This document shows, piece by piece, positions 7,401 to 37,524 of a stretch of DNA of 64,000 nt (its first letter is position 1; each line of letters begins with the position of its first letter). The DNA lies in contig BA000048.1 of NCBI GenBank assembly GCA_000270325.1, positions 515,709-579,708 on the forward strand, in the 5' to 3' direction. Both the position numbers and the translations under genes were made by a program. The notes beneath the pieces are model-generated. The model saw nothing but the letters and a program-made list of their open reading frames with translations. It did no database searches and was not told the DNA's origin. Source of the stretch: Candidatus Caldarchaeum subterraneum. Its GTDB lineage: Archaea; Thermoproteota; Nitrososphaeria_A; Caldarchaeales; Caldarchaeaceae.

Positions 7401-10400
7401 ACTTTGTCAACCGAGTAGCCTCTCTTGGTGAGGTTGAAGGCGTCTTTGTAGACGATGCTGCTGTTGAGGTACCAGTAAACAGTCAACGTGTAGTTAACAA
7501 CGTTTGTCCCGAGGATGTTCTCCATGGCTTCCTGTGTCGGGTAGAGGAGTGTGAGGTTGCCGTCACGTCCTGTCTTGTAGAGAACTGAGGAGGAGCGATC
7601 CACTGTACCGCTATCGTCGTAGTATACGTCGAGCTGTACGACTGCGTATGGTATGGGTCTTGCGAGGTCTTCGTCTTTGAGGTTGAGGGTTATGAAGCCT
7701 ACCGGTATGGGTACTGTTACGACTTCTTTCTCGAACACCAGTGTTGTGGGTCTTGTCGGAACCTCGATGTACCTCTTTCCTTTGAATGGTGTTGATATCT
7801 CTTCGACTGCTCCGGCTGCGACCGCTTGCTCCCATCTCCATCTCTGCTGGTTCCAGAGGCCTTCATTGCCTACGACTGTGAAGTTGTGGGTGGGCCACTT
7901 GCCATTGGCTGTTTCGTTGACCGCTGGGTTGAAGAACTCTCTTATGAGGAAGCTGTCTCCTGGCCTAACGTCTCCTCCTGGGCTGGTTAGCGGTCCCTTC
8001 TGCGTTGTCAGCCATCCGCTGCCTGTTAGCCCTGCTTTGTCGTAGAATCTTGCCCATGGCTGTTCGCCTCTGGTGAACTCGAGCGGGTAGACGTAGCTGT
8101 AGAAGGTGAGGTCTTGTTTGCGGTAGGTGCCGTTCCACCAGATGTTGCTGCTGTGCTGGCTGTCTGCTTTGAGCCAAGTGGTTAGGAGGGTGTCTTCGGT
8201 CCATTTGCTGACGAAGAGCGATGAGAAGACTCCGTCTTCGGGTATGAACATCTCCATGTTGACGCCGTTGTCGTTGACTATGTGGTAGGTGGCGTTGCCT
8301 ATGCGGCGTGCTTCGTTGAGGTAGTCGAAGTCGCCGTCGACGATGCGCTGTTTGAAGGTGTGGGCCCATGTCAGCAGGTCTATCCTGACGGGTCCGCATG
8401 TCTTGTAGAGTGTTGCGTTGCCGATTGGGTTGAGGTTGGGGTCGGTGACGAATTCACCGTTCCATGTCATGTAGACTCTGAGGACGACTCTGTCATTGAC
8501 CTGGCCTGCAGGAGTCTTTCTGATGCTCGGTGGGCTGCTGTGGCTTGTCCAGTCAATCTTGATCTCATAGTCGACGGGCACGGTTCTGCCTGGCCACTTG
8601 CTGTTGCCTGGTGTCTGTTGCGTCTCGGGGTCTCCTGTTGTTACTGTTGTTACTGTTATGTTGTAGAGTGCGCTGGGCATCTTGTAGAAGACGTAGCGGA
8701 CGTCTCCGTAGGTCTTGAGGCCGTTTGACCTGGATATGCCGCCGAAGAAGTGGTCGATTCTGTAGCGGAAGAACTGGCTGAATGCGAGGGTTGTGTTGAA
8801 TTTGTCAGTGTTGGTGTCGCCTGTTGGGTCCATGGTTTCGAGGAAGTATAGGCGGCTGCCTGTTAGCGGGTGTACACCGACCCATGTGAGGGTGATGTTG
8901 AGCCTGGGTATCCTGTTGTCTTGGTTGTAGTCCCATGTTGTGAATATGAAGTCGTTGATGAGGGCTGTGAGTTTGATGGGTGAGTCGATGTTGCTGTCGA
9001 CGGTGAATGTTAGGCTTCCGTCGGGGTTGAGCGGCAGTGTGTCGTCGCCTATTCTAGCGTCTGTGAACTTGACCCATACACCCTTCCACCATACGCCGTC
9101 GATTGTGTATTGTCCTCCTGCTAGGTAGCCGAAGTCGAGGGCGCCTGTGCTGTCGAGCTGTGTTACGTAGGGTGTTGCGGGTGATGGTGGCACTACTTTG
9201 ACGAATGCTTCTCTGGAGAGTGGGCTGTTTTCGCAGTCGACGAAGACGAGCTTGACTTTGTAGATGCGGAGGACGAGGTCCTCCATGATGGTGTGGGTTA
9301 GTTTGTCGACGGTGGCTTCTCCGACGGGTGTGCCGTCGAAGGTGACGGTGACCATGTATGCGAGGTCTTCGGGCAGCTGGTAGAATACTGCCCATCCTTC
9401 GCCGTGCTGGTCATAGCTCCACTGTAGGCTGCCTGTGGATGGGAAGAAGTCGGGTATCAGGCTGGCTCCTGTCTTGGTTATTGGTGGTCCGTTGCCGCGC
9501 TGTAGGGTGATGGCTGTGTTGGCGGCTGGAGCCGGGTTGCCGAGGTTGTCAACAAGCCTATAGGCAAGATCGTGAACATTAGCCGTAATGTAGACGAGAC
9601 CCGCTCTTGCCAACGCTATGTCAGGAGCCTTGTGCGGCGCAAGACTCTGCAGTATTACTACCTGTCTCTTTGTGGCGTTGAGTATCGCGAATGTACCTGA
9701 CTGAGGCTGGCCTGAGAAGAGCATTCCTCCGACGAAATCATTGTAGGTGAACGCTGGATCCAATGTCTGTATGTCTGTGTTGTTTGATGATACAAGTGTC
9801 CTGATTGTCTGTGAACCCGGTGGCCCTGGCCATATCTCGACCTCGGCTGCACCGGTCTCGCCGGTAGTAGTTACGTTGAACCTTCTGATGGATGTGCTGT
9901 CTATTACCCCGTCTGGTCCGATGTCCTGCCAACCTGCGAGAGCGTAGGAAATGTTTCCGACTATCGGCTGGTTGGTGGCTGCGTCATGGTATTTGATGCT
10001 AGCTATAACGCCGCTGAAGGTGAAGGGCGTTCTTATGAAGCCGCCATGTGTTGCGTTTTCAACTATGTCTACTCGTAGGTCTACTCCAGGCGGATAGTTG
10101 ACGAATATGTCGAAGGTGCCTGTTAGCGGGTTGTAGTTCTGCAACCGCATTCCTATGGGGGTGTTTGAGGAGATCATCAGTGTAACCGGTCCACGGATTG
10201 GCCTCGGTGTTCCGAGGGGTCCTCGGCTGAGGGTTACGGTGACCTCGTTGTGTATCTTGATGAGGACTGTGTTGTTTCCTAGAACTACGTTCGGGACTAT
10301 CCATCCGTTGTATGTGGTTGTGTTGGTGGCTGCTATGGCGTAGGGGTTGCGTACTCTTACGCTGTCGACGAGGACTGCGGAGCCGCCGTATCCGTTTCTT

Positions 10401-12238
10401 GCTCCGCCTTTCCACTTGACCTGTATCTCGAAGCCGCCCCACCGCGGGTCATCGCTGAGCTGTCTTGTCTTCATGTAGGTGATTTCGGGAATGAGGGCGC
10501 TCCAGTTCATGCCCGCGTTTATCCATGGTCCCTGCCAGCTTCCGCCCCACGCCTGCTCAAAGTATCCGCCTGGTCTCCATGCTGGAGAGACGTCGTCTGC
10601 TGGGTTGAAGAAGTAGCTGGCGTTGAGGCTTCCTCTGAGGCCCCAGTTGGTTCCGTTGGGGAAACGGGCGAATTTGCTGTACTGGCCTAGGTATCCAGGC
10701 CACTTGTGCGGGTCGTTGGTGCAGCCGTCGCTGCCCGTGGTGTGTATGCTGTGGGCCAGGTAGTAGGGTACATCAGCTGATGTCTTGAAGTTGAGGGTGA
10801 CCTCTGCCCCGACCATCTTATCGCCTATCCATGGATGCTGGATGGCAAGGTCAGCGTCCTGCACACAGAACCGAGCATAAAACACCGTGTTATTCTCAAA
10901 GTTCGCTATCGATGGCCCAACGGTCTCAACATTCGCAGTAGTGTCAGTGCCCTCCCATGTTGGCAGCAAGGGCCTAGGTGGGTCTATATACACTGTCTCG
11001 TTAAGTACGAGGCTGAACGGCCCAGCGGGAACACCTGTGATGCCTCCCTGCGTAATCGTTGGGTTGACCGATGGGTTTGATGGATAGGCTCCGAACAGAG
11101 GCCTTATCTTGCCGGTGGCAGGGTCGGTAGCATACTCGGGAGCATTTGGACCACCTGTTTGGTTGTATTCGTTTCCTACGTAGAAGGTCTGGTTGACGAG
11201 TACGGTCTCCCACCAGACACGCTTGGTGGCGTTGAGATGCGGAGCCTCGATAAAACCGTTGTTATCTTCAGGGTCAGGAATACCTCCTTCGAATGGTTCT
11301 CTGGTGCCGAGGTTGATGCTCTGCAGCGGTATTGGGACGAGGCGGTTCTGTGCAAACTTGCCTGAACCCACACCAGCGGAGCGTGGATAGATTTCACGAG
11401 TGTATCTGCTCTGGCCATCATCTCCGGTTATAGCCGCCTGTATCAGTGATTGTGTGGAGCTGGCGTCTGTGTGGTCGGTGTCGTATATGAATATCGTCGC
11501 ATAAGTCAACACATCATTGGTGGCGTACCATGTGTGTTCGTGGAAGAGCTTGAAGATGTAGGCCGCGCGAGCCAACCAAGCCCTCTGAGGATCGTTGTGG
11601 TTAATCTGGAAAGTTATTGGACCGGATGCATAGTTTACGTTGTCCACGGGCCCTGACCCGAGAGGCGGAAAGATGTTCCAGTTAAATGGACCACCGTGGG
11701 TATCTTCTATGCCGTCATCGTTTATAGTGCTGTTGAAAGCTGAGAACCCGAACTTGCTTAGGAAGCTCGGTGTGGGGTTGACTGTTAGCCAGTAGACTAT
11801 GATTCCTCGGAATGGGTTGCCCTCGCCGATACACTCACCCTGATAGCTCTTCGCCTTCACAATAATGGTAACGTTCTCCCAGCCAGCAGGCCACGAAACC
11901 CTGATGAAACCAGTGCCGTTAGGACTGCCCGCTCTAATCGGACCCTCCCAACTATCCAAAGGCGCAGTACTTGCTCCACTTGGGTTCTTGAACTTATACA
12001 GCTCAACACAGACATTCGTCACATTATACCTATCAGCAAAGCCAACACCAGTCGGCTGCACAGGAGGAGCACCAGCTACATAAGGTGCACCATCCCACGA
12101 AGCCGTCACTATTTTGAGCCATGCGGTGTAGTTCGGCTGCGCAAACGCCGGCGTGACAATCGCTGCTCCAAGGAAAGCCGTCGGAAGCGCTAGCAGCAAA
12201 GCTAGCAAAACTGCCTGACTTTTTCCAATCATCAACAC
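4448..12238 (-). CDS. Giant (2596 aa) secreted, membrane-anchored surface protein; S-layer or adhesin candidate
   Basis: Uninterrupted 7.8 kb ORF; N-terminal signal peptide, dense N-x-S/T sequons, C-terminal repeats of the ...DGRPVAGA... type (carboxypeptidase-regulatory-like), C-terminal TM helix plus basic tail. Confidence 0.8.
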   Translation of the reverse strand: MLMIGKSQAVLLALLLALPTAFLGAAIVTPAFAQPNYTAWLKIVTASWDGAPYVAGAPPVQPTGVGFADRYNVTNVCVELYKFKNPSGASTAPLDSWEGPIRAGSPNGTGFIRVSWPAGWENVTIIVKAKSYQGECIGEGNPFRGIIVYWLTVNPTPSFLSKFGFSAFNSTINDDGIEDTHGGPFNWNIFPPLGSGPVDNVNYASGPITFQINHNDPQRAWLARAAYIFKLFHEHTWYATNDVLTYATIFIYDTDHTDASSTQSLIQAAITGDDGQSRYTREIYPRSAGVGSGKFAQNRLVPIPLQSINLGTREPFEGGIPDPEDNNGFIEAPHLNATKRVWWETVLVNQTFYVGNEYNQTGGPNAPEYATDPATGKIRPLFGAYPSNPSVNPTITQGGITGVPAGPFSLVLNETVYIDPPRPLLPTWEGTDTTANVETVGPSIANFENNTVFYARFCVQDADLAIQHPWIGDKMVGAEVTLNFKTSADVPYYLAHSIHTTGSDGCTNDPHKWPGYLGQYSKFARFPNGTNWGLRGSLNASYFFNPADDVSPAWRPGGYFEQAWGGSWQGPWINAGMNWSALIPEITYMKTRQLSDDPRWGGFEIQVKWKGGARNGYGGSAVLVDSVRVRNPYAIAATNTTTYNGWIVPNVVLGNNTVLIKIHNEVTVTLSRGPLGTPRPIRGPVTLMISSNTPIGMRLQNYNPLTGTFDIFVNYPPGVDLRVDIVENATHGGFIRTPFTFSGVIASIKYHDAATNQPIVGNISYALAGWQDIGPDGVIDSTSIRRFNVTTTGETGAAEVEIWPGPPGSQTIRTLVSSNNTDIQTLDPAFTYNDFVGGMLFSGQPQSGTFAILNATKRQVVILQSLAPHKAPDIALARAGLVYITANVHDLAYRLVDNLGNPAPAANTAITLQRGNGPPITKTGASLIPDFFPSTGSLQWSYDQHGEGWAVFYQLPEDLAYMVTVTFDGTPVGEATVDKLTHTIMEDLVLRIYKVKLVFVDCENSPLSREAFVKVVPPSPATPYVTQLDSTGALDFGYLAGGQYTIDGVWWKGVWVKFTDARIGDDTLPLNPDGSLTFTVDSNIDSPIKLTALINDFIFTTWDYNQDNRIPRLNITLTWVGVHPLTGSRLYFLETMDPTGDTNTDKFNTTLAFSQFFRYRIDHFFGGISRSNGLKTYGDVRYVFYKMPSALYNITVTTVTTGDPETQQTPGNSKWPGRTVPVDYEIKIDWTSHSSPPSIRKTPAGQVNDRVVLRVYMTWNGEFVTDPNLNPIGNATLYKTCGPVRIDLLTWAHTFKQRIVDGDFDYLNEARRIGNATYHIVNDNGVNMEMFIPEDGVFSSLFVSKWTEDTLLTTWLKADSQHSSNIWWNGTYRKQDLTFYSYVYPLEFTRGEQPWARFYDKAGLTGSGWLTTQKGPLTSPGGDVRPGDSFLIREFFNPAVNETANGKWPTHNFTVVGNEGLWNQQRWRWEQAVAAGAVEEISTPFKGKRYIEVPTRPTTLVFEKEVVTVPIPVGFITLNLKDEDLARPIPYAVVQLDVYYDDSGTVDRSSSVLYKTGRDGNLTLLYPTQEAMENILGTNVVNYTLTVYWYLNSSIVYKDAFNLTKRGYSVDKVAIADVTFVLAISANKDRPVKDLYARIWWLNVTDGNTVFPGRITVDHARRTWTYTAVPETRGAAKWTTGQLTLPWLPTSERFTKSDWDLVFDSSAGRWVYDDVTRSWDIPYPSYEDGRMIDGWPYNPVPTGYDRRHPHLTNQENSRIQYRISVWSDQLPIDPSSPKYNNGAWQRDHYELVWRIPAQFPDAWMLFGHPPFDITFYRGTTGTGQFQPIPGYALTRTWTATPTPGSKVVAIKLNATDVDIPVFWQVGDYELGSYDCGPLLGYIVKGRIVPPLGATFAPKPIDAVTTAGTITVGDKTVNICISGKPVGLVTVTSGDTPSTVIWGGSTLVIDEVSPPPSIWYNDGTGQAGADNPNRGTTSNYWRNWVSQAIDPLTGQPVNLHVGDQLQVPGVDLGIQYMGYGRPYEGVARTATVTVVSNDPDNRAHRPFIKMFEFQNVSARITDFNGRPLPGAFYQIIDAQTGKSAAWSYAGPDGRIVPMPIRKPGGVFIQRVLYLGQGANGEPTWPVNSFARWPIAYDSRDDETTQETQKPDIPLGFAYTAEAGPWPTGDGWFRADVCRHAGDGSYNYTAGVLEALASCPPAGWGRSFDVITRIFDLRIRFVYGDAQRPADPAYVFSAPSLALPDDFIIRGQGAIFEAKRLARSSYDIVALWPDANGEEVGRRTFDVSRTNVGTVEGTVVLALRDLSFNVVDRQGRPVAGARVSVSPNLVREQDIQLRPDSIFTILRVPDGRTYDFTVEWTSPYGTTARAAVRDTPAGLQSRGSIVIPVDDVTLTVVDFDGRPVAGAAIRFGGQQVGSTDSQGVVIIGQVPLDNEYQIEVSKDGTTIGGDRVRFTASRTSATIQAGIYDIAVIVKGAAGQPIQGAIVELVRGGTTIATAATDASGSAVFSKVVGADYSVRASYEQFSNSANVARGVRSATIVLDLYTILFGVPMTLATFLALIIGLILLVIVVVVIVSEYIRWRGRRLGIYPAAPPKK

Positions 12239-12255
12239 ACCCAGCCCAACAACCG

Positions 12256-12262
12256 CTATATA
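12256..12262 (-). promoter_or_regulatory. Putative TATA box (TTATATA) about 20-27 nt upstream of the giant gene's first two ATG codons
   Basis: Minus-strand read ggttatatagcgg...ATGCTGATG; spacing suggests a leaderless or short-leader transcript. Confidence 0.35.
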
Positions 12263-12289
12263 ACCCGTAACAGTCTAGAACCCCTCCAA

Positions 12290-12620
12290 AACTCTGGACA
12301 ACAACATCCAAAAAATACAAACAACAACACCCCCGTAATACCAAACCCTTAAAAACAAAACCCCAAAAACAGAAAAAACACCAAAAACCCCCAAAAAGCC
12401 AAAAAACAACACATTCTACAAAACTAGAACACACCAAAACACCCGCCAAAACAAACAACCAACGGCCAAACAACCCCACACAAAAAGGCCACGAAAATAT
12501 TTCCACAACCTGTTGTAAAACACCATAATCCTCTTCGCCAACCCTGCCCCTCATCTCTCCAAAGCCCACCTGAGCCACCGACCTCTCAACCCACTAAAGC
12601 CTATTCAACCACTTCTTCAA
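12290..12620. repeat. Low-complexity, strongly strand-asymmetric tract (A+C-rich, nearly G-free on + strand)
   Basis: Runs such as caaaaaatacaaacaacaacaccccc...aaaacaaaaccccaaaaacagaaaaaacaccaaaaacccccaaaaagccaaaaaac; the minus-strand ORF 12033..12578 over it is a compositional artefact. Confidence 0.6.
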
Positions 12621-13004
12621 GAAACATGAATACGTTCAGACATCTCCCGCCGTAAGACCACCTACAAAGCATAAAACTCTCCAACATCGACGTAGACCGT
12701 AGCCCCCCAATCAAGAGCTCCGTCTCAACAATGTCTCGGCTCTCGGACCACCGTGAACCTTCTTAACTAGCCTTACGGCCTACAAAGGGCTTCAAACAAA
12801 CAAAACCACGCTATCCGATTAGGTTAAGGCACTAGAGCTAAGCCTCTAAACATGACCTAGACATGCACGATGCAATACAATACTCTACAGCACTCTGCTT
12901 AGGCATAGACATAATCTCCTTCGTGTTGATTAACTAAAAAAGCCACTTATCATCTCGACATGAGTTCCTCTTTTTTGTAAGAGTGTTGGCTGGCTAACTC
13001 TGCA

Positions 13005-13457
13005 TCATAGCTCTCCCAATAGGGAAACATCCGTAACCACTTTTCCTTTTTGTCTAAGATCTTTATCGGCTGTGACGAGTTTTTCTCCTAATTTTCTTGA
13101 GAGCCAGAGATATGCTGAATCATATATCGTTAACCCCGATGTCACAGCTATTTCAAGCACTTCACTTGCTTCATTCCAGAGAACCGGGACCATATTTATC
13201 CCGAGAGCGCCTATCGATTTTAGAGCGCTGACTCCGTCCTCGAGAGTCAGCACGCTATTCTTTACTGCTTTTGATATTACGGATGCAAGCTCATAAATTA
13301 TTAGCGTGGGCGCATATGCTTTTACCCGGTCAAGGGCAATTGAATTCTTTAAGACTCTGGCCTCTTCCTCCCAAGGCTCGCCAGGTATAAACCATTTTAC
13401 TGCAACGCTCGCATCGATGACAAGTTTTATCTCTTTTCCCTCTCCTCCCTCAGCCAT
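13005..13457 (-). CDS. vapC: PIN-domain toxin (VapC-like)
   Basis: KLVIDASVAVKWF start with conserved Asp, PIN-like length, overlapping upstream antitoxin gene. Confidence 0.7.
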   Translation of the reverse strand: MAEGGEGKEIKLVIDASVAVKWFIPGEPWEEEARVLKNSIALDRVKAYAPTLIIYELASVISKAVKNSVLTLEDGVSALKSIGALGINMVPVLWNEASEVLEIAVTSGLTIYDSAYLWLSRKLGEKLVTADKDLRQKGKVVTDVSLLGEL

Positions 13458-13669
13458 CTAACAATCACCTCCGTCGGCACAACACCAGCCTTGCTTCTGA
13501 TCTCGTCTAGCTTCACAGCCGCCTCCTTTGCAAGCTCCTCCTTCACCTTCGCTTCTATGGCTCCCCGGATATACTCGCTCCAATCAACCTTCACTCGTCG
13601 CATTAATTGCCTAAGCTCTTCTGGAACCTTAACGGAAACATTGACAAGCTTACCCAGACAGCTCACCAA
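13427..13669 (-). CDS. vapB: Ribbon-helix-helix antitoxin (VapB/CopG-like)
   Basis: VNVSVKVPEELRQLMRRVKVDWSEYIRGAIEAKV is a typical RHH fold sequence; overlaps the PIN gene. Confidence 0.55.
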   Translation of the reverse strand: MVSCLGKLVNVSVKVPEELRQLMRRVKVDWSEYIRGAIEAKVKEELAKEAAVKLDEIRSKAGVVPTEVIVRWLREEREKR

Positions 13670-14442
13670 ATCGTAAAACCATTCGGTCTGACATATAAAC
13701 CTTAGACTCGAATCGATCTAAAGCCCTCTGAAGGCTCTAAGAGAGTCTAGAGAGCCTGTTATTATAGTTCTTGATTCTACTGGTGTTAGGCTGGTTCGTG
13801 GCTTGAGAGAAAATATGGTAAGAGGAGGTGCGTCAAGATACACGACGCGAAGACTGGGGAGACACTGGTGCTGAGATGTCTGGGATAAATATACTCCGAC
13901 CATTCCTTCTATGTCCTGAGGTAGCTAAGGTCGTGTTCCCTTATAGTTCTGACTCCCTGCTCCTGCCTAGTTACCCTTAGGTTCAAACCCTTCCAGCTAT
14001 CGTTAGAGAGCTCCAACTCAATGCCGCCAGCCCTAAACCCTATCTTGGACCAATCGCTGCTCCTCCTTAGCACCCTCAGTGTTGCCAAAAAGTCCTCCTA
14101 ATCCATACCTAGAAGCTCACACATCTCCCTGCAAACTCTTTCGATCTCCTCGACCGTAGTCATGAACCCAATCCCTTAACAGTATCCTCGTGGTCTCTCT
14201 CTTAAAATCTTTCAGGAGCATAGATCCAAAAACAATGCAATATTAAACGATGCCCAAACAATCTGGGTATACAACTTAGACGCTCGTTATATCCTCCCTA
14301 AGCCTTGTCAGCTCCTCGTCACATCGTCTAAACACTGGAAAAAGCGAGGCAACTCCTAGCAGATCATACAGCCAAAGGAATTAGGCCACAAGGCAAGTAT
14401 AGTTTAAAACTTATATATGCATGCACATGTATATGCGTAGGT

Positions 14443-14667
14443 ATGACAAAGGTTATTTCGCTCTCGGATGAAGCCTATGCAGCTCTTAAAAGAATAAAGA
14501 GGGAGGGGGAGTCCTTTTCTGATGTAGTATTACGCCTCGTGGGTCAGGCGAAGTATAGGCCCTTGTCAGAGTTTGCAGGTAGATGGGCTGGCGACGACAT
14601 AGACAAAGTGTTTGAAGAAATTCTGCGTGAAAGGGAAAGGGCCGAGTCGAGAGAGGTATCCATTTAG
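14443..14667 (+). CDS. vapB: Antitoxin (VapB-like) of a second VapBC pair
   Basis: 74-aa ORF MTKVISLSDEAYAALKRIKREGESFSDVVLRLV; its stop abuts the start of the following PIN gene. Confidence 0.55.
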   Translation: MTKVISLSDEAYAALKRIKREGESFSDVVLRLVGQAKYRPLSEFAGRWAGDDIDKVFEEILRERERAESREVSI

Positions 14668-15060
14668 ATGGTATGCCTAGATACTGACATAATCGTAGCC
14701 CTGCTCCGCGGGGATAATAAAGCCATAGAAACTATAGAGGAGCTGCAAAGAATGGGTATGCAATTTAAAACTACGATAATAACCGTCTATGAGCTTCTTA
14801 AAGGCGCAGCAATCTCAAGTAAATCATCTGAGAATATCAAGACAGTGAAAGAACTACTTCATAACGTAACCATACTGGGCTTAGACATAGACGCTTGCGG
14901 AAAAGCAGGCTTGATATACAGCGACTTGAGGCGGAGCGGAAAGATGATTAGCGAGTTCGACATATTAATAGCAGCCATAGTCCAACATAACAGAGAAACG
15001 CTAATAACCAGAGACAAACACTTCCAAGAAATCACAACAATCAACATAAGACAATGGTAA
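14668..15060 (+). CDS. vapC: PIN-domain toxin (VapC-like)
   Basis: MVCLDTDIIVALL... conserved Asp near N-terminus, 130 aa, AT-rich context. Confidence 0.7.
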   Translation: MVCLDTDIIVALLRGDNKAIETIEELQRMGMQFKTTIITVYELLKGAAISSKSSENIKTVKELLHNVTILGLDIDACGKAGLIYSDLRRSGKMISEFDILIAAIVQHNRETLITRDKHFQEITTINIRQW

Positions 15061-15408
15061 TCTAGAGATAATGAACGCAAGAGCAACCCTCATAGCAACT
15101 ATTTCAAAGGAAATGCTTTGTAGCTTAACTCTCCGTAATTTACCCTTGTCTCAGTCTCTTTTGATGGTGTTCTTTGGAGTAGTTTGCCCTCTGAGGTCCC
15201 CTATACAGACAAACTGGAGAAAACATCTAACCCATCCTCAACAACACTAAAGACACCGTCTCCTCTCAGAAACTGGAAATAACTCCATGAATTAAGCCAA
15301 AGGCACAGCCTGTTATGGTTTTATACACGGCTTGCCAAGTCGTGGAGTGGGATGATGATGAACGTCCATCTTGAGCCGATGATGGCCGATGGGCAGTCTG
15401 ACCACCTT

Positions 15409-16500
15409 CTACTCAACGGTGGGTATGTCGAGAAGCGTAACCTCGGGTGAGCCGTCGTCGGAGATGCTTGTGAAAACCCTGTCGCTGTGTATGAGTGAGA
15501 GGTAGCTGAAGGTTCGTGAAACAGAGGCCGGTGTTGACCTGTATCCCTCCTCGAGGAGCCGGTATGCGGCGGCGAGGCAGAGAACGTTCAGCTTAACTTT
15601 CCCAAGCGCTCTATGCAGAACACGGTAGGCATCCAGCAGAGCCCGTGACTCGGCCTGCTGCCCCCCAATCCTGAGACCGTGAAACAGCGGAACAAATGCT
15701 GTGAAGAAGGTCTGGTCAACTCTCTCCAAAGGCTTCTCAAACACATCCGACAGCTCGCGGACATTCTTCAGAAACCTCTGCGAAACACTGTAACGAGCCC
15801 GCTTCACCCTCTCGAGAAAACCAACATCCACCAGCCACTCCAGCCGCGGCGGAACAAAGTGCCTATACTTGGCGTAGAGACGGCTCTTAATCCACTCAGC
15901 CTGCGAAGCATACTTCAGCCGCTCCTCCCGAAAACCCGAGGCCTGCTCAAGCTCCCTCTGAACCGATGCACGCCTCCTCTCCGGCATCCTCCTCAACATC
16001 CTCCTAAGAGCCTCGGGATACACCTCCTCCATCACCGCATACATGGCCTCGAGACGGCTGAACTCACGCATCCCAGCCAACCACTTGAGCATCCCAGAGA
16101 AAATGTAGTCTCTGTTCAGCAAGGCGTGGAGAAAGAGCGTCTTCTCAACATCTGTCAACGTCAAAACCTCTGAGAGATTGGCCATCCCCTCACCTGAGAC
16201 ATGCCGCCGCAGAGCCTCCGAAGAATTGAGACAGATATACGCCGCGCCATAGAGGCCTGGCCTTCCCGAAGCCCTGTCATAGAACCCCAGCTGCGCAGCC
16301 AGCTTGACGTAGTTGCGTGCGTTAACCTCGGTCCTGAGCATGCCAGGCATCTCCCCAACATCGTTAACCAAACTCCTGCACGTCTCCAGCAACACCGAGG
16401 CCAAATAGTCAGGTGAACGTGGCGAACCATCCTCGAGGATGCAGGCGATAAGCTTCAGGTAACCTAGTCGACAGACGTCGCCGTGAACCTCCGCTATCAC
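15409..16500 (-). CDS. Hypothetical protein, 363 aa, immediately downstream of and overlapping a methyltransferase gene; candidate restriction/effector partner
   Basis: Long ORF, mostly helical by composition; 4-nt overlap (16497-16500) with the upstream methyltransferase; no recognisable nuclease or ATPase motif. Confidence 0.55.
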   Translation of the reverse strand: MIAEVHGDVCRLGYLKLIACILEDGSPRSPDYLASVLLETCRSLVNDVGEMPGMLRTEVNARNYVKLAAQLGFYDRASGRPGLYGAAYICLNSSEALRRHVSGEGMANLSEVLTLTDVEKTLFLHALLNRDYIFSGMLKWLAGMREFSRLEAMYAVMEEVYPEALRRMLRRMPERRRASVQRELEQASGFREERLKYASQAEWIKSRLYAKYRHFVPPRLEWLVDVGFLERVKRARYSVSQRFLKNVRELSDVFEKPLERVDQTFFTAFVPLFHGLRIGGQQAESRALLDAYRVLHRALGKVKLNVLCLAAAYRLLEEGYRSTPASVSRTFSYLSLIHSDRVFTSISDDGSPEVTLLDIPTVE

Positions 16501-17693
16501 GCTATCCTCACCATCCTCCGTGGCTCACCCTTCGACAAAACAAGAACCTTCTCCCTGTCAACCCCCTGCCAAGACTTGAGATACATCAGATACTTGTGCC
16601 CACGTCTTATGCCGTCGCTTATGATGGCGCGGGCTGTGAAACCGCTTTTCTCAGCAGGCTCGACCAAAAGCTCCGCCAAATCCACCCGACGACCACCCGA
16701 CTTGACATCACCCACAACCAGCACACAGTATCCCCCAGGCTTCAGCATTCTGAAAAACTCATCCAAAACCCTCCCCATAAACTCGACATAACGTTTAACA
16801 GACTGGGTGGCGAAAAGCCGTTTACCGACAACACGGTAATCATGCCCGAGAAACCAGAGCCTCAGCCAGTTATCCCAAGCATAAGTCTGCAGGTTGAGGT
16901 AAGGCGGCGAAGTTACTATGAGGTCGACAGACTCATCCGCTATAGGCAGCGCTGATGCATCCATGTTGAAGGCGGCGCCCCTCGCCTCAGGCAACCCATC
17001 AGCCAAAACAGACTCAGCCTTCCTCAGCAAACAAGCCAAAACATTTCTAACAGGCTTCTTCAACCCATGCTCCGCAACATACCTTCTCATGTAGCGCGGA
17101 GCCATCGAGAAAGAGTGGCTGCATGGAACGCTCAAACTAATCTCGGAAGAACCATGCAGGATACCGAGCATACAGGCCTTCACAAAGTTCGTCACATCGT
17201 CCTCGGAGTCCAGAAGCAGTTCTCTTACGGCCAGTATCTGTTTGAGGGTTTGGGGGTGGTAGAAAGCTCGGACATCTTCGTCGACGTCGTAGACCGAGAC
17301 TGCGTCAGGCCTCATCACTCTCGAAGCCTTCTCAACCCAGCTCCTAACATCTCTGAACATAGCCGGCTTCACCTTCGCACGGGTAACCACATAGGCCTCT
17401 GGAGCAAGGTCGTTTCCCACGCCGACGCGGCCAGTCAAACACGCCTCAAGCGGGGCCGTCCCCTTGCCCGAAAACGGGTCAAGCACAAGGTCGCCGCGCT
17501 CCGAAAACCTCGTTACAACCCAGCGAGCCAACGCCGGCGGAAAAGAGCCCGTCCTCGACATGATGCGGTGAAGCGAGTGACCCCAGCTCCTGCCAAAACC
17601 TTTCCACGAGTCGGAAACCTCGCCGCTGGAAATGTAAGCTATTTCCGTCATCAAAAAACTCGGACCAACCTGCTCCACGCTATAATCATTCAC
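16497..17693 (-). CDS. Amino-methyltransferase (N6-adenine/N4-cytosine DPPY family), motif I before motif IV
   Basis: FPPALARWVVTRFSERGDLVLDPFSGKGTAPLEA (motif X/I) followed about 185 aa later by VDLIVTSPPY (motif IV) and RMLKPGGYCVLVVGD. Confidence 0.7.
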   Translation of the reverse strand: MNDYSVEQVGPSFLMTEIAYISSGEVSDSWKGFGRSWGHSLHRIMSRTGSFPPALARWVVTRFSERGDLVLDPFSGKGTAPLEACLTGRVGVGNDLAPEAYVVTRAKVKPAMFRDVRSWVEKASRVMRPDAVSVYDVDEDVRAFYHPQTLKQILAVRELLLDSEDDVTNFVKACMLGILHGSSEISLSVPCSHSFSMAPRYMRRYVAEHGLKKPVRNVLACLLRKAESVLADGLPEARGAAFNMDASALPIADESVDLIVTSPPYLNLQTYAWDNWLRLWFLGHDYRVVGKRLFATQSVKRYVEFMGRVLDEFFRMLKPGGYCVLVVGDVKSGGRRVDLAELLVEPAEKSGFTARAIISDGIRRGHKYLMYLKSWQGVDREKVLVLSKGEPRRMVRIA

Positions 17694-17874
17694 CGGAAAC
17701 CCCGATGGCCAATTCCCCCGTTACTTCCCCGCCAAATACCAAGGTAATCGCTGGACAATATCACCAGCCAGAAACATGGGAAAACGTGTAGAAGATGAGG
17801 CGAGCCGAGGAAACTATCACTTCCTCAGAGTAAAATACATCCTCAGAGAAGTTTTCTAAGCCGGTGCGTGGTGT

Positions 17875-18447
17875 TTGTCATCCACGGTCCTCGAGTATGA
17901 TGGACGTGCTTTTTACGAGCTTGTTGTGAAAGAGTTCCGCAGACAGCTGCCTCTTATACAGGTTTCGCCCGACACTTGGATAGCGTATTTCGACAGTTTG
18001 GGAGACCGTGAATTCATAGCCTATTGTGCAAAAATCCTCGCCGACCATCTGCGGGACTGCGAGATTCTGGTCACCTCGGAGAGCAAGGGGATACCGCTGG
18101 TTCATGAGATAGCCTCCACACTCGGCCACCCACGCTACATAGTCTGCAGAAAAGAGAGGAAAGCCTTCATGAAAGACCCGATAATCGTCACCTACAGACC
18201 CATTACCTCCGCGAAAGACCTGGAGCTGGTGATAGACGGTAGATACGTGCCCTACATCAAGGGCAAAAAAGTTGGAATAGTCGACGACATCGTCAGCACA
18301 AAAAACACCATGGAAGCTATGGAGAAAATCGTGAACCTAGCAGGCGGCATAGTCACCAAAAAAGCAACAGTCCTCGTCGAAGGCGAACACCACAAAGACG
18401 TCATTTACCTCGGCGTCCTCCCCATATTCAAAAAAACACGACAATAA
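17875..18447 (+). CDS. Phosphoribosyltransferase-fold protein with a variant PRPP motif
   Basis: VGIVDDIVSTKNTMEA resembles the PRPP-binding loop of type I PRTases but lacks the canonical Gly. Confidence 0.5.
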   Translation: MSSTVLEYDGRAFYELVVKEFRRQLPLIQVSPDTWIAYFDSLGDREFIAYCAKILADHLRDCEILVTSESKGIPLVHEIASTLGHPRYIVCRKERKAFMKDPIIVTYRPITSAKDLELVIDGRYVPYIKGKKVGIVDDIVSTKNTMEAMEKIVNLAGGIVTKKATVLVEGEHHKDVIYLGVLPIFKKTRQ

Positions 18448-18450
18448 CAC

Positions 18451-18457
18451 CTATAAA
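18451..18457 (+). promoter_or_regulatory. Putative TATA box (CTATAAA) about 28 nt upstream of tRNA-Gln(CUG)
   Basis: Position and composition only. Confidence 0.3.
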
Positions 18458-18481
18458 CAACCAAAACAAAAAATCATACGC

Positions 18482-18596
18482 AGCCCGGTCGTCTAGCGGC
18501 CAAACCTGGTCAGAAGAGGGCCATGGATCTCGGGCTCTGGATCACTCCTCTGTGAGGAGAACCCCGAGGACGCCGGTTCGAATCCGGCCCGGGCTA
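18482..18596 (+). tRNA. tRNA-Gln (anticodon CUG) with two 21-nt introns, one in the D-arm and one at the anticodon loop
   Basis: Exons align base-for-base with the intron-less tRNA-Gln(UUG) at 37525-37597 (AGCCCGG-UC-GUCU-AGCGGCCAA...GGAU); anticodon stem TCGGG/CCCGA, loop CUCUGG; T-arm GCCGG-TTCGAAT-CCGGC; discriminator A. Confidence 0.65.
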
Positions 18597-18991
18597 TGGC
18601 TTTGTTTCATTTCTAAAGGCCGGGGTTCATGTTGGAGCGAAAGAAGCAACGGCTCGAGGAACACTTAGGAGAAGAAGACTCCTGCCAGCCAGCCAACCCA
18701 TTATAATGGTTTTTAGCCATGAATCGTTTTCCTTTGTGTCCAAAAATTGGCTGATGAGCGATGATGTTCTTCTAGCTTCTGGTAGAGGCTTGCATTTTTC
18801 CTAACCCGTGACCACACACTTGTGTGATAAGCCTCTCGGGTCAAGCTCTTGCCCCCAACACGGACATGAGATCCGTTGAAGAAATCACGCTGCTCGAGCG
18901 GTATGTGGTTGGAGCGGAGACGACTGTCGCTGCATAACTTCGCTGGAATTCTTATATCGTGGGTAATTTATTATTTTGTGGGAAGAATTCC

Positions 18992-19240
18992 ATGAGTGTG
19001 GTCAGTATCGATAAACGTGGGAGGGTTATTCTTCCCAAGGGGATTAGGGAGATGGGTGATAGGGCTGTTGTCATCTCTGCTGGGAGTTTTGCGGTTGTCA
19101 TCCCTATTGCTAAGGAGCCTGCGAGTGTGGCGGAAGGGTGGCTTAAGTCCAAGAGAGGAAGAAAGGAACTTGGGTTGGTTGCGGAGAAGAGAGCAAAAGC
19201 TGACGCTGTTGCGAGAGCTAGAAGGAGAAGACAGCTATGA
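18992..19240 (+). CDS. AbrB/SpoVT-type antitoxin (VapB/MazE-like)
   Basis: MSVVSIDKRGRVILPKGIRE is the swapped-hairpin AbrB signature; start taken at the internal Met of ORF 18959..19240. Confidence 0.6.
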   Translation: MSVVSIDKRGRVILPKGIREMGDRAVVISAGSFAVVIPIAKEPASVAEGWLKSKRGRKELGLVAEKRAKADAVARARRRRQL

Positions 19241-19452
19241 TGATAGAGAGTGATGTTATCTATGCTTATGTTAAGTCGAGTGACTGGCTAAAACCAGCGG
19301 CAAACAAGCTGATGTCTAGAATAACGCGGGGAGAGTTTGGGACAGTGTATTCAAGTAGAGAGATTCTACACGAACTATATTATGTCTCACTGGAAGAGGG
19401 AGTGTCTATTGAGGAATTCATAAGAAGAGCGGCAACAGTTTTTGATGTTTGA
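19237..19452 (+). pseudogene. N-terminal fragment of a PIN-domain toxin (truncated VapC)
   Basis: 71-aa ORF MMIESDVIYAYV... overlaps the antitoxin stop by 4 nt but is only about half PIN length and ends 14 nt before the convergent kdgK gene. Confidence 0.35.
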
Positions 19453-19465
19453 CGGGTTGATGTTT

Positions 19466-20428
19466 CTATTCTTTTGGATGGATGTTTATGTGCTTGATGT
19501 TGGTGTCTATGTCTTCTTCGGTGGGGAGAGCTTCTTCGTCTCCTCTTACTGTTACCACGAGGGTGCCTGCTATGGTTGCTCGTTGGAGTGATTTGTTGAG
19601 GCTTCTGCCTTTCAGGATGGATGTTATGAATGTGCCTGCGAAGGCGTCTCCTGCGCCTATCGGGTCCTCGACATACACAGGGAGAGGGGCAGCGAATGCT
19701 CTGTTGTTTCTATCCGCGGCCAAGGCCCCGCGTTCACCCATTTTGAGCACCACAATATCCACACCCATGTTGAGAAAGGTTTTGATGATCGTGTCTTGGT
19801 CCATGGTTCCCAGCAGTATAGATGCGTCCGTGGGGTCTGTGAAAAGTATGTTGGTCTTCTCTATTATCGGCATCAGGGTTTTGACGGCTCTTTCGTTTGT
19901 TTTCCACAGCACGGGCCTTATGTTTGTGTCGAATGAGATGGTGACATCGTTCGAGACAGCTGCTTCTAAGGCCTTGTATGTGGCGTTTTTCGCTGTTTCG
20001 CTCAGCGCGGGTGTTATGCCTGTCACGTGGAAGACTTTGGCTGACCCGATGTAGTCTGGGTCGATGTCCTCGGGTGATAGTCTGCTTCCCGCTGAGCCTG
20101 TTCGGTAGTAGAACATTTTGCTCCTCGCCGGTATCGGAAAGCCCCGCTGGACAAAGTAAATTCCTGTAGGTGCTTCTGGGTCGATTTTCACATGTGAGAT
20201 GTCCACTCCTTCTCCTCTAACCCAGTTGATGATGCATTTTCCGAATTCGTCATCACCGACCCTTGTGATAAGCCCTGAGTCGAGACCCTGCCTTCTCACG
20301 CAAACGGCAACGGTTGTCTCCGCCCCGGCGACATGCCGCTCGAACAACGTGACATGTCTAAGTGGGCCTCTTGTTACCGCGTTGAGTTGAATTAGTGATT
20401 CGCCGAGAGTCACAACTGTTGGAGACAT
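19466..20428 (-). CDS. kdgK: PfkB-family sugar kinase, probably 2-keto-3-deoxygluconate kinase
   Basis: PfkB signature DPIGAGDAFAGTF; adjacent to a DapA-family aldolase. Confidence 0.65.
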   Translation of the reverse strand: MSPTVVTLGESLIQLNAVTRGPLRHVTLFERHVAGAETTVAVCVRRQGLDSGLITRVGDDEFGKCIINWVRGEGVDISHVKIDPEAPTGIYFVQRGFPIPARSKMFYYRTGSAGSRLSPEDIDPDYIGSAKVFHVTGITPALSETAKNATYKALEAAVSNDVTISFDTNIRPVLWKTNERAVKTLMPIIEKTNILFTDPTDASILLGTMDQDTIIKTFLNMGVDIVVLKMGERGALAADRNNRAFAAPLPVYVEDPIGAGDAFAGTFITSILKGRSLNKSLQRATIAGTLVVTVRGDEEALPTEEDIDTNIKHINIHPKE

Positions 20429-20430
20429 TT

Positions 20431-21318
20431 TTATGCCCTTAGCTCCTGCTCCTTGGGCAGAAGGTTTTCCAGCGTATTTTTCTCTTCGGGTGTTAGGTCG
20501 CGTGTGGGCGGTATGGGGCCGCCGATGTCTATGCCTCTTAGTTTGAGGGCGTAGCGGTTGGACGCCATGTCTGGCCCGATTTTCTTAAGCGCCGCTCTGA
20601 CCTTGTTAAGTATGGTCTGAAGCCTGAGAGCTTCATCCAGCTTACCATTTTTCACACAGTCAAATACTTGTTTGGCGATTTCTGGATAAATTGAGGAGAG
20701 AGAGCTTACGTGAACGCGATATCCTATGATGAAGCTGTAGACCATGAGGTGGTCTCCGCCGGCTCCCAGAAACCTGCTTCCCTTGAATCTTTTGAACACT
20801 TGGAGGAGTGTGTCAGGGTCTCCGCTGCTCTCCTTCAACCCAACCGTCGGCTTGACTGTTTCAAGAATCTTCTGAAGACCTTCTAAGGGGATGCTGTATC
20901 CTTGGCGGCCGGGATTGTTGTAGACCAGCACGGGAACGGAGGAAATGTCTGCGATGGATTGGTAGAAGGATGTGAGTGAGTCGGGGTCGTATCTGTAGTA
21001 GAACGGGGCGACGGCTGAGACGGCGTGTGCACCTATTCTCGAGGCGTGGCGTGTGAGCTGTTTAACCGTATCCATGTCCGAGGCGCCTACATGGATTATA
21101 ACGAGGCCCCGTGAACCCGCGTATTCTACAGCCGCCTCAGCCACCTCCTGCCTAGCCGAGGGCCCGAGTTTAACACCTTCTCCCGTCGTGCCTAGAACGA
21201 AGAACCCGTTTACCCCATGTTTAAGATGGAACTCTATAAGCTCAGCCATCTTCTCTCTGTAAGCCGTTGATGGTGTAAGAAGCGCGGACACTATGCCCTC
21301 GAATTTTTCCAGCTCCAT
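20431..21318 (-). CDS. kdgA: DapA/NAL-family aldolase, probably 2-keto-3-deoxy-(phospho)gluconate aldolase
   Basis: GFFVLGTTGEG motif of the DapA family; operon partner of the PfkB kinase. Confidence 0.65.
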   Translation of the reverse strand: MELEKFEGIVSALLTPSTAYREKMAELIEFHLKHGVNGFFVLGTTGEGVKLGPSARQEVAEAAVEYAGSRGLVIIHVGASDMDTVKQLTRHASRIGAHAVSAVAPFYYRYDPDSLTSFYQSIADISSVPVLVYNNPGRQGYSIPLEGLQKILETVKPTVGLKESSGDPDTLLQVFKRFKGSRFLGAGGDHLMVYSFIIGYRVHVSSLSSIYPEIAKQVFDCVKNGKLDEALRLQTILNKVRAALKKIGPDMASNRYALKLRGIDIGGPIPPTRDLTPEEKNTLENLLPKEQELRA

Positions 21319-35132: not shown

Positions 35133-35276
35133 CCATCAACACCATACAAAATATAAACATGAAAAGCAAACACGGCCGCCGCTGACACGTGCCCACAAAA
35201 ACAAGACAAATTTCGCGCCAATCAGGCTTGTGACCCAGTAGCCTTTTTACATGCCTTTGACCTGTCTCTATGCGGG

Positions 35277-37036: not shown

Positions 37037-37237
37037 ATGGTGATTACCCACGAGGAGGCTAAGATTATAATGGATAAACTTGACAGCATCAGATTGGAGT
37101 TATTAAGGCTTAGGGCTTCCCTTCTCCCAGAAGAAGAGCTCAGCGAGGAGGAGATTAAAGAATTAGAAGAGGCAAAGAAAGAGGTAAGCCAGGGAATGTA
37201 TGTAAAGCTTGAAGAATTGCTGAAAGAATTTGATTAA
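37037..37237 (+). CDS. Putative antitoxin (RelB-like) of a RelBE-type pair
   Basis: 66-aa acidic helical protein directly preceding and abutting a RelE/ParE-like toxin gene. Confidence 0.5.
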   Translation: MVITHEEAKIIMDKLDSIRLELLRLRASLLPEEELSEEEIKELEEAKKEVSQGMYVKLEELLKEFD

Positions 37238-37500: not shown

Positions 37501-37524
37501 ACTACAGCCAGTAGCTCAGCACAA

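Follow-up and report, generated by a model that had tools for sequence, protein, structure and literature searches.

A conserved gene block between two variable VapBC islets in the chromosome of Candidatus Caldarchaeum subterraneum

VapC toxins are PIN-domain RNases. Each is kept inactive by its cognate VapB antitoxin, which is more labile than the toxin and doubles as a repressor of the operon. Small islets at fixed positions are the ordinary way in which such toxin-antitoxin (TA) cassettes populate thermophile genomes. In the variable VapBC islets of thermophilic archaea, the PIN toxin gene is preceded by an overlapping or abutting small antitoxin gene (RHH, PF02697 or AbrB), unrelated copies are clustered, composition is atypical, strains vary, and pseudogenisation is frequent. 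The locus described here is alike in each of these respects, and its cassettes are themselves ordinary. It differs in that two fixed slots flank a conserved block and in that relatives carry other cargo in those slots. Integrative elements associated with tRNA genes (pNOB8- and SSV-type) provide a second comparison. As in such elements, one of the two islets (islet B) directly adjoins a tRNA gene, its first base following at the discriminator base of tRNA-Gln(CUG), and deeper relatives carry genes of head-tailed viruses at the same flank. Unlike them, the locus has no integrase, no partitioned int and no tRNA 3'-end repeat in the window (the whole 64-kb stretch of DNA analysed here) or in the related loci examined, and islet B, at 0.9 kb, is far smaller than any integrative element.

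A preliminary description had presented positions 13005-19452 of the window as a single AT-rich, horizontally acquired island of 6.5 kb. Every gene that it listed was found, and the features of the region are as follows.

12457-15310, no strand: islet A, strain-variable and low in GC, between the upstream region of a giant surface-protein gene and the core block
13005-13457, minus: vapC1, PIN-domain toxin of 150 aa (Pfam PIN, 1.4e-11), apparently intact
13427-13669, minus: vapB1 antitoxin (NCBIfam NF050799, VapB of Sulfolobales type, 4e-14; 52.9 bits, under the 60-bit curated cutoff)
13909-14163, minus: orphan 84-aa ORF, inactivated by a TAG at 14098-14100
14443-14667, plus: vapB2 antitoxin (Pfam VAPB_antitox PF02697, 5.9e-21)
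14668-15060, plus: vapC2, PIN-domain toxin of 130 aa (Pfam PIN, 5.5e-15), apparently intact
15346-15403, plus: candidate gene for a C/D-box sRNA, preceded by a TTTTATA element and marking the left end of the core block
15409-16500, minus: 363-aa methyltransferase partner, a predicted tandem winged-helix protein; clade core gene
16497-17693, minus: N6/N4-type DNA methyltransferase of 398 aa (Pfam N6_N4_Mtase, 1.3e-16; 61.7 bits against a cutoff of 26.7); clade core gene
17875-18447, plus: adenine-phosphoribosyltransferase-like housekeeping gene (NCBIfam PRK07322, 1.9e-55; 187 bits against a cutoff of 143)
18482-18596, plus: tRNA-Gln(CUG) with two introns (aligned intronless orthologs; ARAGORN -i), the right end of the core block
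18597-19465, no strand: islet B, variable, from the tRNA-Gln 3' end to the kdgK stop codon
18875-18937, plus: possible N-terminal relic of a pfkB-family sugar kinase (six-frame reading; tblastn of KdgK residues 23-45, 13/23 identical, E 0.007)
18959-19240, plus: vapB3, AbrB/MazE-type antitoxin gene with weak family matches below the curated cutoffs
19237-19452, plus: vapC3 remnant, truncated PIN toxin gene of 71 aa, matching residues 1-68 of a 138-aa PIN protein of L006 (94%)

Both slots are covered by three close relatives (L006, L015 and L007), of which L006 and L015 have nearly the same sequence. Inspection of the alignments reveals that related genomes differ from the window solely at 12457-15310 and 18597-19465. 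The core block between these positions (15311-18596) aligns at 92.7% to L006 and L015 and at 87.3% to L007 with the same gene order. Half of the interval is thus kept in order in close relatives at 87-93% nucleotide identity, and this half holds the methyltransferase-partner module, the phosphoribosyltransferase gene and the tRNA-Gln that had been counted as part of the island. The left border of the variable DNA lies at ~12457, ~550 bp to the left of the start given previously.

Composition was compared with that of same-size windows and of the genes of the 64-kb window. As a whole, 13005-19452 has a GC content of 0.497, at the 15th percentile of same-size windows (window mean, 0.525). Islet A (GC 0.451) falls in the lowest 0.5% and islet B (0.467) in the lowest 7%, while the core block is typical at 0.540, such that the AT-richness described earlier belongs to the two islets and not to the 3.3 kb between them. 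GC3 follows the same division. The TA genes have values of 0.375-0.49, except vapB1 (0.58), which places the cassettes 2-4 standard deviations under the 42 genes of the window (0.612 +/- 0.056), and the core genes have values of 0.61-0.68. Conserved order combined with typical codon usage, which the preliminary description itself had named as speaking against an island, is what the core block displays. Small TA genes could in part have such low GC3 by nature, whatever their origin, and the value of vapB1 is typical.

Islet A is 99-100% identical among contigs of the same population. It has no homology in L006, L015 and L007; in its place lie 1.3 kb of different DNA in L006 and in L015, and 0.7 kb in L007. 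No remnant of its cargo is detectable in these three or in L016-L018. It contains two VapBC pairs on opposite strands, as previously described, and both appear intact from their sequences. In the minus-strand pair, vapB1, which also has a weak Pfam RHH_3 match, overlaps vapC1 (GC3 0.391) by 31 nt across the vapC1 start. In the plus-strand pair, the TAG of vapB2 directly abuts the ATG of vapC2 (GC 0.407, GC3 0.45). The two toxins score 45.5 (VapC1) and 56.5 bits (VapC2) against the Pfam PIN cutoff of 23.6, and the four acidic positions of the PIN catalytic site can be read directly in both; those of VapC1 lie at IDAS, YELAS, YDSAY and TADKD. Against the NCBIfam VapC models, vapC2 reaches 2e-18, under the cutoff. 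Relatives of VapC2 are patchily scattered over unrelated archaeal and bacterial lineages, and its best non-self match is 80% identical, versus 91-97% for neighbouring core proteins in L006/L015. Between the two pairs lies the ORF rightly described before as decayed, in which a TGG codon has recently become TAG; the TGG is kept, and the ORF is intact, in the sibling contigs L099 and L100. This ORF has no Pfam match, and a search of 5.8 billion proteins returned no homolog but itself.

The window, L006 and L015 have islet B in common (~92% identity), and it is therefore older than their split. It is missing from L007 (18597 to about 19465-19490), where ~20 nt separate the tRNA end from the kdgK stop. 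L006 and L015 carry 404 bp more than the window, which has a deletion at 19436/19437 with CA(G) microhomology at the junction. This deletion accounts for the truncated PIN gene noted previously behind the third antitoxin. The vapB3 product is 93% identical to its L006/L015 ortholog, which precedes an intact PIN gene whose full-length 138-aa product matches Pfam PIN at 1.4e-8. In the window, vapB3 overlaps the vapC3 remnant by 4 nt, and the C-terminal half of the PIN domain is gone, so the remnant is not an intact PIN toxin. Thus, two cassettes look intact, and the third is dead through a 404-bp microhomology deletion.

Homology to the relatives restarts at 15311, just before the candidate sRNA gene. 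Its C, D', C' and D boxes are directly readable and conserved in L015 and L007, and its match to sR20 in Rfam is weak (20.6 bits, E 0.9). Beyond close relatives, the cluster of partner, methyltransferase and phosphoribosyltransferase genes recurs over Caldarchaeales metagenome contigs, with identities of 61-97% for the phosphoribosyltransferase (57-97% over 35 Caldarchaeales loci), 53-97% for the methyltransferase and 36-91% for the partner that drop together with distance. On these comparisons, the core block reads as vertically inherited in the Caldarchaeum lineage. The tRNA-Gln at its right end, previously noted as intron-bearing, has the anticodon CUG and two introns of ~21 nt each, located in the D-loop and the anticodon loop by alignment with the intronless L025 and L026. 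The cloverleaf and anticodon are canonical once the inserts are removed, and ARAGORN -i calls Gln(ctg) across exactly 115 nt. The gene was missed by Rfam at the gathering threshold, and the Ser(GGA) call by ARAGORN with default settings (18503-18596) is an artefact. The minimum-free-energy fold has a relaxed helix-bulge-helix around the anticodon-loop intron, with no textbook bulge-helix-bulge. A multi-intron tRNA with anticodon CUG has been reported for the Caldarchaeum genome (PMC3293823). In every lineage checked, tRNA-Gln(CUG) lies near the phosphoribosyltransferase gene, mostly directly after it.

The two slots hold other cargo elsewhere. At slot A, L006 carries a gene for a 346-aa coiled-coil protein that is frameshifted in L007, and L016 and L018 carry pairs of HEPN (5e-35) and nucleotidyltransferase genes (HEPN-MNT). 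At slot B, a coiled-coil gene follows the tRNA in L016, and phage cement (8e-13) and capsid genes follow it in L035, with homologous ORFs in the same place in L030 and L036. These observations show both positions to be recurrent sites of insertion or replacement, and the 3' flank of tRNA-Gln(CUG) seems to have long served as a hot spot in Caldarchaeales. Islets A and B vary independently of each other, with conserved DNA in between, so the interval is not present or absent as one unit. Consistent with the preliminary description, no integrase, transposase or recombinase was detected by six-frame reading or by Pfam searches of all main ORFs and of nine small ORFs that lie in intergenic stretches or extend into them, and neither six-frame reading nor tblastx against related loci revealed a recombinase remnant. 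Searches with the 3' end of tRNA-Gln (14-29 nt, mismatches allowed) found a single copy in the window, with no direct repeat at the borders or elsewhere, and likewise a single copy per locus in 12 related loci. No att, target-site or other border repeats were found.

Taken together, the interval is most probably a mosaic in which a vertically inherited core block lies between two recurrent insertion hot spots with variously decayed VapBC cassettes. One accessory or defence island of ~6.5 kb, acquired horizontally as a whole and comprising the methyltransferase module, the phosphoribosyltransferase and the tRNA, would explain why several defence- or addiction-type genes occur together and why mean GC is slightly under that of the window. 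This reading is very improbable, since the central 3.3 kb is kept in order and sequence in all relatives, the protein cluster is conserved across the order, atypical composition is limited to the islets rather than spread over the whole candidate element, integrase and att repeats are lacking, and the interval's mean GC is not extreme. Horizontal acquisition is supported for the TA cassettes, which the closest related genomes lack or replace with other DNA, which are low in GC3, and among which VapC2 is taxonomically scattered; it does not extend to the interval as a whole. A different history would involve no recent transfer, with an ancestor that had many cassettes at both slots and lineages that kept different subsets. 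The decay seen in the truncated PIN gene, the frameshifted coiled-coil gene of L007 and the nonsense mutation of the orphan ORF fits such differential loss, as does the age of islet B. Against it stand the lack of detectable islet A remnants in L006, L015, L007 and L016-L018, the low GC3 of the cassettes relative to host genes, and the closest relatives of VapC2, which are taxonomically scattered and far less similar than those of its core neighbours. Accordingly, we regard differential loss as unlikely.

For the mosaic of core block and hot spots, cassettes would arrive at and leave slots A and B, and insertion here or loss there would both fit. Most likely, entry occurred by recombination via the conserved flanks, or the islets formed by erosion of elements once integrated at the tRNA-Gln 3' end. 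From what is known of the family, loss of a cassette would free the toxin, such that the DNA could stabilise itself in the population without an integrase.

The methyltransferase-partner module is present as previously described, its two genes overlapping by 4 nt. The methyltransferase (GC3 0.62) contains the SAM-binding motif I DPFSGKGT and the motif IV TSPPY, its PDB sequence matches are modification methylases, and its residues 36-358 match PDLC03325, a PADLOC model for type II MTases, nearly end to end (8.9e-50). For the partner, searches of PADLOC, Pfam and NCBIfam returned no match. Its AlphaFold2 model (mean pLDDT 91) consists nearly entirely of helices and winged-helix hairpins, and all of its best structural matches are DNA-binding or recognition domains. 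The predicted fold is similar to that of type IIS recognition domains, and no nuclease fold or motif is present in the model. Homologs of the partner are confined to the Caldarchaeales clade, with more distant relatives in other archaea and in bacteria, and the family comprises 245 clusters at 50% identity, none of which carries a Pfam domain among those tested. Distant archaeal relatives have an orthologous methyltransferase (50% identity) and a gene for a PLD-family nuclease nearby or, on another contig, directly follow an Hjc-like nuclease gene; bacterial relatives lie within SspBCD phosphorothioation defence loci. Based on the model and these neighbourhoods, the partner is predicted to be a tandem winged-helix protein and represents an undescribed family with links elsewhere to DNA-modification systems.

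Whether this pair is an active restriction-modification system, with the partner as endonuclease and the core block as a fixed defence module, depends on how these likenesses are weighed. As in type II/IIS systems (the recognition domains of FokI, N.BspD6I and BpuJI), a predicted tandem winged-helix protein is tightly linked to a methyltransferase with SAM-binding and SPPY motifs. The near end-to-end type II match, the gene overlap and the nuclease and phosphorothioation neighbours of distant relatives point in the same direction. Opposing this are the structural matches of the partner to DNA-binding and not nuclease domains, the lack of a family match, and the lack of an adjacent nuclease gene in the Caldarchaeales flanks of eight loci (L016, L018, L030, L032, L035, L036, L042 and L045). 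The pair also adjoins the phosphoribosyltransferase gene in nearly every sufficiently long Caldarchaeales locus, with identities falling in step, and vertical inheritance at a fixed position is unlike typical restriction-modification systems. An active defence system is thus unlikely. Compared with SspB/DUF4007 and BrxA-type accessory proteins, the partner has no sequence-level relation to SspB, and archaeal partner proteins accompany a methyltransferase rather than phosphorothioation machinery. Tentatively, the methyltransferase and its partner may constitute an undescribed two-component DNA-modification module that is fixed and vertically inherited in the Caldarchaeales chromosome.

For annotation, these results indicate that a run of defence-looking genes and a modest GC dip do not justify an island call without synteny evidence. 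Half of the interval is core genome, and the real variable units are two islets of less than 3 kb at fixed positions. At the flank of tRNA-Gln(CUG), some lineages have provirus genes, others have TA cassettes or no insert, and Caldarchaeum has sugar-acid genes; this flank could help to find viruses and mobile elements of uncultured Caldarchaeales. The interval is mostly ordinary, apart from the uncharacterised partner protein of the DNA methylase. The methyltransferase-partner pair is the sole element that could repay experiments, since it ties an undescribed family to DNA modification in archaea and bacteria. Were the two-component reading true, the partner family would serve DNA-modification systems in general as the subunit that reads a sequence or a modification. 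Its Caldarchaeales form would then be a nuclease-less, domesticated derivative that, for example, directs N4-cytosine or N6-adenine methylation, or reads it, in the service of chromosome functions and not of defence.

Every gene named in the preliminary description of this region was recovered, including two VapBC toxin-antitoxin (TA) pairs on opposite strands:

13005-13457, minus strand: PIN gene (vapC1), paired with vapB1
13427-13669, minus strand: VapB-like gene (vapB1), paired with vapC1
14443-14667, plus strand: PF02697 VapB gene (vapB2), paired with vapC2
14668-15060, plus strand: PIN gene (vapC2)
15409-16500, minus strand: 363-aa partner gene, no family match
16497-17693, minus strand: N6/N4 DNA methyltransferase gene, overlapping the partner gene by 4 nt
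17875-18447, plus strand: phosphoribosyltransferase gene, above cutoff for the NCBIfam PRK07322 adenine phosphoribosyltransferase subfamily
18959-19240, plus strand: AbrB-like antitoxin gene, followed by a PIN fragment
19237-19452, plus strand: 71-aa PIN fragment

The C. subterraneum genome paper makes no mention of toxins, restriction or islands. The KdgK protein encoded in the right-hand flank has relatives at 96% identity on L006, a 'Candidatus Caldarchaeum subterraneum' MAG contig, and at 90% on L007, a Nitrososphaerota MAG contig, with exact copies in the read-set assemblies DRR000358 and DRR10136x, which places the window in the Caldiarchaeum subterraneum lineage (Aigarchaeota/Caldarchaeales).

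The best-supported reading of the region is a mosaic, in which two small addiction-cassette islets occupy fixed hot spots on either side of a core block. The 6.5-kb stretch had been described as more AT-rich than its flanks, but as a whole it is unremarkable, with a GC of 0.497 versus 0.525 for the window (15th percentile among same-size windows). The dip is present only in 12457-15310 (islet A; GC 0.451, lowest 0.5% of same-size windows) and 18597-19465 (islet B; GC 0.467, lowest 7%), and the block between them, 15311-18596, has a GC of 0.540. GC at third codon positions (GC3) is 0.375-0.49 for the TA genes except vapB1 (0.58), and 0.68, 0.62 and 0.61 for the partner, methyltransferase and phosphoribosyltransferase genes, respectively, where the reference is 0.612 +/- 0.056 (42 genes in the window that encode 150 aa or more). 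A second low-GC zone lies at 35000-42000 (0.45-0.49 per kb) around tRNA-Gln(UUG) (37525-37597, minus strand); within it, a 216-aa gene at 35638-36288 matches nothing in Pfam and has a GC3 of only 0.45.

Comparison by blastn with L006, L007 and a third close-relative contig, L015, reveals no counterpart of islet A in any of the three. Its slot is occupied in L006 and L015 by 1.3 kb of DNA with the gene for a coiled-coil protein of 346 aa, present as a frameshifted version in L007, and neither this gene nor the HEPN/MNT genes of relatives left a trace in the non-coding stretches of the window. Contigs from the same population match the window at 99-100% across both VapBC pairs. The closest non-self relative of VapC2 is 80% identical, in contrast to the 91-97% identity of the adjoining core proteins in L006 and L015; its next relatives, at 50-68%, are labelled Nitrosocaldus, Nitrososphaerota and Brockarchaeota, and one 47% match is found in a bacterium. 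An 84-aa orphan ORF is open (TGG) in two same-population contigs and carries TAG in the window. It was not identified by Pfam, matches only itself among 5.8 billion proteins, and may not be a real gene. Its sequence at 14122-14139 forms an 18-nt inverted near-identity (17/18) with 14568-14585, which lies 428 nt away within vapB2; the chance expectation for the 8 kb region is ~0.03 pairs of this kind. The match could represent antisense pairing or a recombination scar.

Homology to the relatives restarts exactly at the promoter-like TTTTATA (~15316-15322) of a candidate C/D-box sRNA (15346-15403, plus strand), which therefore marks the right border of islet A. Boxes C (AUGAUGA), D' (UGAG), C' (UGAUGG) and D (CUGA) of this candidate, together with both guide regions, are kept in L015 and L007; Rfam gives it only a weak sR20 match (20.6 bits, E 0.9). 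On the other side of islet A, an A/C-rich tract at 12239-12456 with a 9-10-nt period (AAAAC(A/C)CC-like units, GC 0.40) immediately precedes the GTG start codon of the gene for the 2596-aa surface protein (4448-12238, minus strand). The tract is kept in L006, L007 and L015 and could serve as a leader or a promoter. In its N-terminal part, the surface-protein gene is only 58-63% identical to relatives in amino acids and 73-80% in nucleotides, versus 87-93% in nucleotides for neighbouring genes, which indicates that hypervariability extends leftward beyond islet A.

Islet B varies as well. Window positions 18597-19490 are missing from L007, where ~20 nt separate the tRNA discriminator base from the kdgK stop codon. 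In L006 and L015 the islet is present with 404 extra bp that complete a 138-aa PIN protein (Pfam 1.4e-8), and microhomology of 2-3 nt marks the junction of the corresponding deletion in the window. A short frame at 18875-18937 (plus strand), which shortly precedes the AbrB-type antitoxin gene, runs opposite to kdgK and is kept in L006 and L015, resembles KdgK residues 23-45 (13/23 identical, tblastn E 0.007); it may be what is left of a second pfkB kinase gene.

The block between the islets was proposed to belong to one acquired island, yet it is conserved in relatives and only the flanking segments are variable. Positions 15311-18596 (to 19437 in L006 and L015) align at 92.7% with L006 and L015 and at 87.3% with L007, the same levels as on the kdgK side. 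When metagenomes were scanned with the phosphoribosyltransferase as query, 35 Caldarchaeales loci were returned, and in nearly every locus of sufficient extent the methyltransferase and partner genes adjoin the phosphoribosyltransferase gene. Identities drop in parallel (phosphoribosyltransferase 61-97%, methyltransferase 53-97%, partner 36-91%), and tRNA-Gln(CUG) is found near the phosphoribosyltransferase gene, usually directly after it, in every lineage checked. This conserved linkage argues that the block is core, vertically inherited genome. The preliminary observation is thus confirmed in part, and the island interpretation is partly supported, for the variable, low-GC TA islets but not for the methyltransferase pair, the phosphoribosyltransferase gene or the tRNA.

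Cargo at both edges of the block differs across lineages, which indicates that both positions are recurrent hot spots of insertion and replacement. Beyond the partner gene, Caldarchaeales loci L016 and L018 carry HEPN (5e-35) and nucleotidyltransferase TA pairs and coiled-coil genes, and L030, L035 and L036 proceed directly to a housekeeping-looking 403-aa gene. After tRNA-Gln(CUG) comes a coiled-coil gene in L016; in L022 and L024 the SDR gene follows at once, without kdgK or kdgA, and L035 has genes of a head-tailed virus (Phage_cement_2 8e-13, Phage_capsid 4.6e-5, PHROG major head protein 7.8e-8). The cement/decoration and HK97-type major capsid genes were tested in L035; ORFs homologous to them occupy this position in L030 and L036.

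Such virus genes or their homologous ORFs, along with a winged-helix regulator, lie immediately 3' of tRNA-Gln(CUG) in L030, L031, L035 and L036 (e.g. L035 8648-12609), on large cellular contigs of 295-558 kb. They are probably a provirus or provirus remnant; no att repeat was found within the 8 kb available. In the sister lineages L020, L022, L023 and L024, the phosphoribosyltransferase gene is followed directly by the SDR gene, and the kdgK-kdgA pair is absent in comparison with window 18597-21318 (the intervening tRNA-Gln was confirmed in L022 and L023). Over a longer timescale, the sugar-acid genes are thus themselves part of the variable tRNA-proximal region.

The intron-bearing tRNA-Gln was borne out. 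Alignment with intronless orthologs after the same phosphoribosyltransferase gene in two other Caldarchaeales contigs (L025, L026) places two ~21-nt inserts in the D-loop and anticodon loop of tRNA-Gln(CUG), 18482-18596, and ARAGORN with intron search returned Gln(ctg) of exactly 115 nt at the same position. Rfam missed the gene at its gathering threshold, and the default ARAGORN call, tRNA-Ser(GGA) at 18503-18596, was rejected on the basis of the ortholog alignment. This two-intron tRNA is already known: an anticodon-CUG tRNA is among three multi-intron tRNAs listed for this genome (PMC3293823).

Signatures of mobility were sought throughout the interval. In agreement with the preliminary description, Pfam revealed no integrase or transposase family in any main ORF, nor among nine small ORFs that lie within intergenic stretches or overlap them. 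Direct repeats of the tRNA-Gln 3' end had been suggested as border marks; a search for 14-29 nt of it, with mismatches allowed, in the window and 12 related loci recovered only the tRNA itself. A general search for direct and inverted repeats yielded only short matches, probably due to chance; one of them, a 23-nt imperfect inverted pair at 12907/19365, has its second arm in conserved PIN coding sequence. No target-site duplication was found at the slot junctions. We favour either recombination through the conserved flanks or erosion of elements formerly integrated beside the tRNA as the route by which the islets would have entered. In VapBC systems, a labile antitoxin neutralises a PIN RNase and also co-represses its transcription, leading to post-segregational stabilisation. 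By analogy, the cassettes of the window would act by this mechanism; judging by sequence, two look intact and the third is dead. The TA islets are of a known kind and ordinary within it.

Elsewhere in the window there appears to be a better candidate than the 15409-17693 pair for an acquired restriction-modification module beside a tRNA gene. The second methyltransferase module is located at 52683-54304 (minus strand), next to tRNA-Leu(GAG) (52617-52701, plus strand); 48155-50333 was rejected for this role, as its genes encode glutamate synthase subunits. The module comprises a 325-aa DNA methyltransferase (PADLOC MTase_II 1.6e-72) and a 215-aa partner, unrelated to the 363-aa partner and lacking a family match, whose gene runs with its stop codon into the 3' end of tRNA-Leu. 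The local values are 0.47 for GC and 0.555 for GC3.

The methyltransferase of the core block matches a type II MTase model of PADLOC over nearly its full length (8.9e-50) and contains the motifs DPFSGKGT and TSPPY. Its 363-aa partner, searched as a single sequence and as a profile, matched no entry of Pfam, NCBIfam, PADLOC or PHROGs, and PDB sequences gave no credible hit. Its 101 homolog clusters are all annotated as hypothetical and almost all labelled Caldarchaeum, Caldarchaeales, Aigarchaeota or the enclosing phylum. A confident AlphaFold2 model built with 45 sequences (mean pLDDT 91) depicts helices and winged-helix hairpins, for which Foldseek found no PDB match at E < 0.1. No nuclease gene adjoins the pair in the Caldarchaeales loci whose flanks were examined, and we regard the pair as a restriction-modification-like module without evident nuclease that behaves as core genome. 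Its predicted role may lie in restricting DNA, in targeting methylation or in reading methylation.

A profile search extended the partner family to 245 clusters, including ~540-aa bacterial proteins with the domain at the C-terminus; the ten members tested contain no credible Pfam domain. In two bacteria, the family member directly follows SspD in an SspB-SspC-SspD cluster, in loci L104 (SspB 5e-103, SspD 7.5e-92) and L103 (with a PAPS-reductase-like gene). A third locus, L105, on a contig that starts shortly before the family member, has in common with L104 a PbeC-like ATPase/SNF2 module on the downstream side. The bacterial relatives head a conserved three-gene module (~375-560, 370 and 300 aa) at L104 6001-9696, L105 191-3295 and L103 3175-5720, directly downstream of an SspD or SspD-like gene in L104 and L103 and adjoining the ATPase/SNF2 module in L104 and L105. 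PADLOC returned no match for genes 1 (bacterial relative P0125) and 3, and a weak BrxD match for gene 2 (7.7e-06). Identification as SspFGH was unsupported: according to the SspFGH paper, SspF has a Walker A motif and SspH an FtsK-like region, and neither was seen in these proteins.

Within the region, real novelty potential is confined to the family of the methyltransferase partner. In more distant archaeal loci (L108, L109; e.g. L108 5001-9130), a member lies 1.8 kb from a methyltransferase 50% identical to that of the window, with a PLD-family (PLDc_2) nuclease gene between them, and another (L107 832-2342) directly follows an Hjc-like nuclease gene. These linkages hint that the family serves as the recognition subunit of split restriction enzymes.
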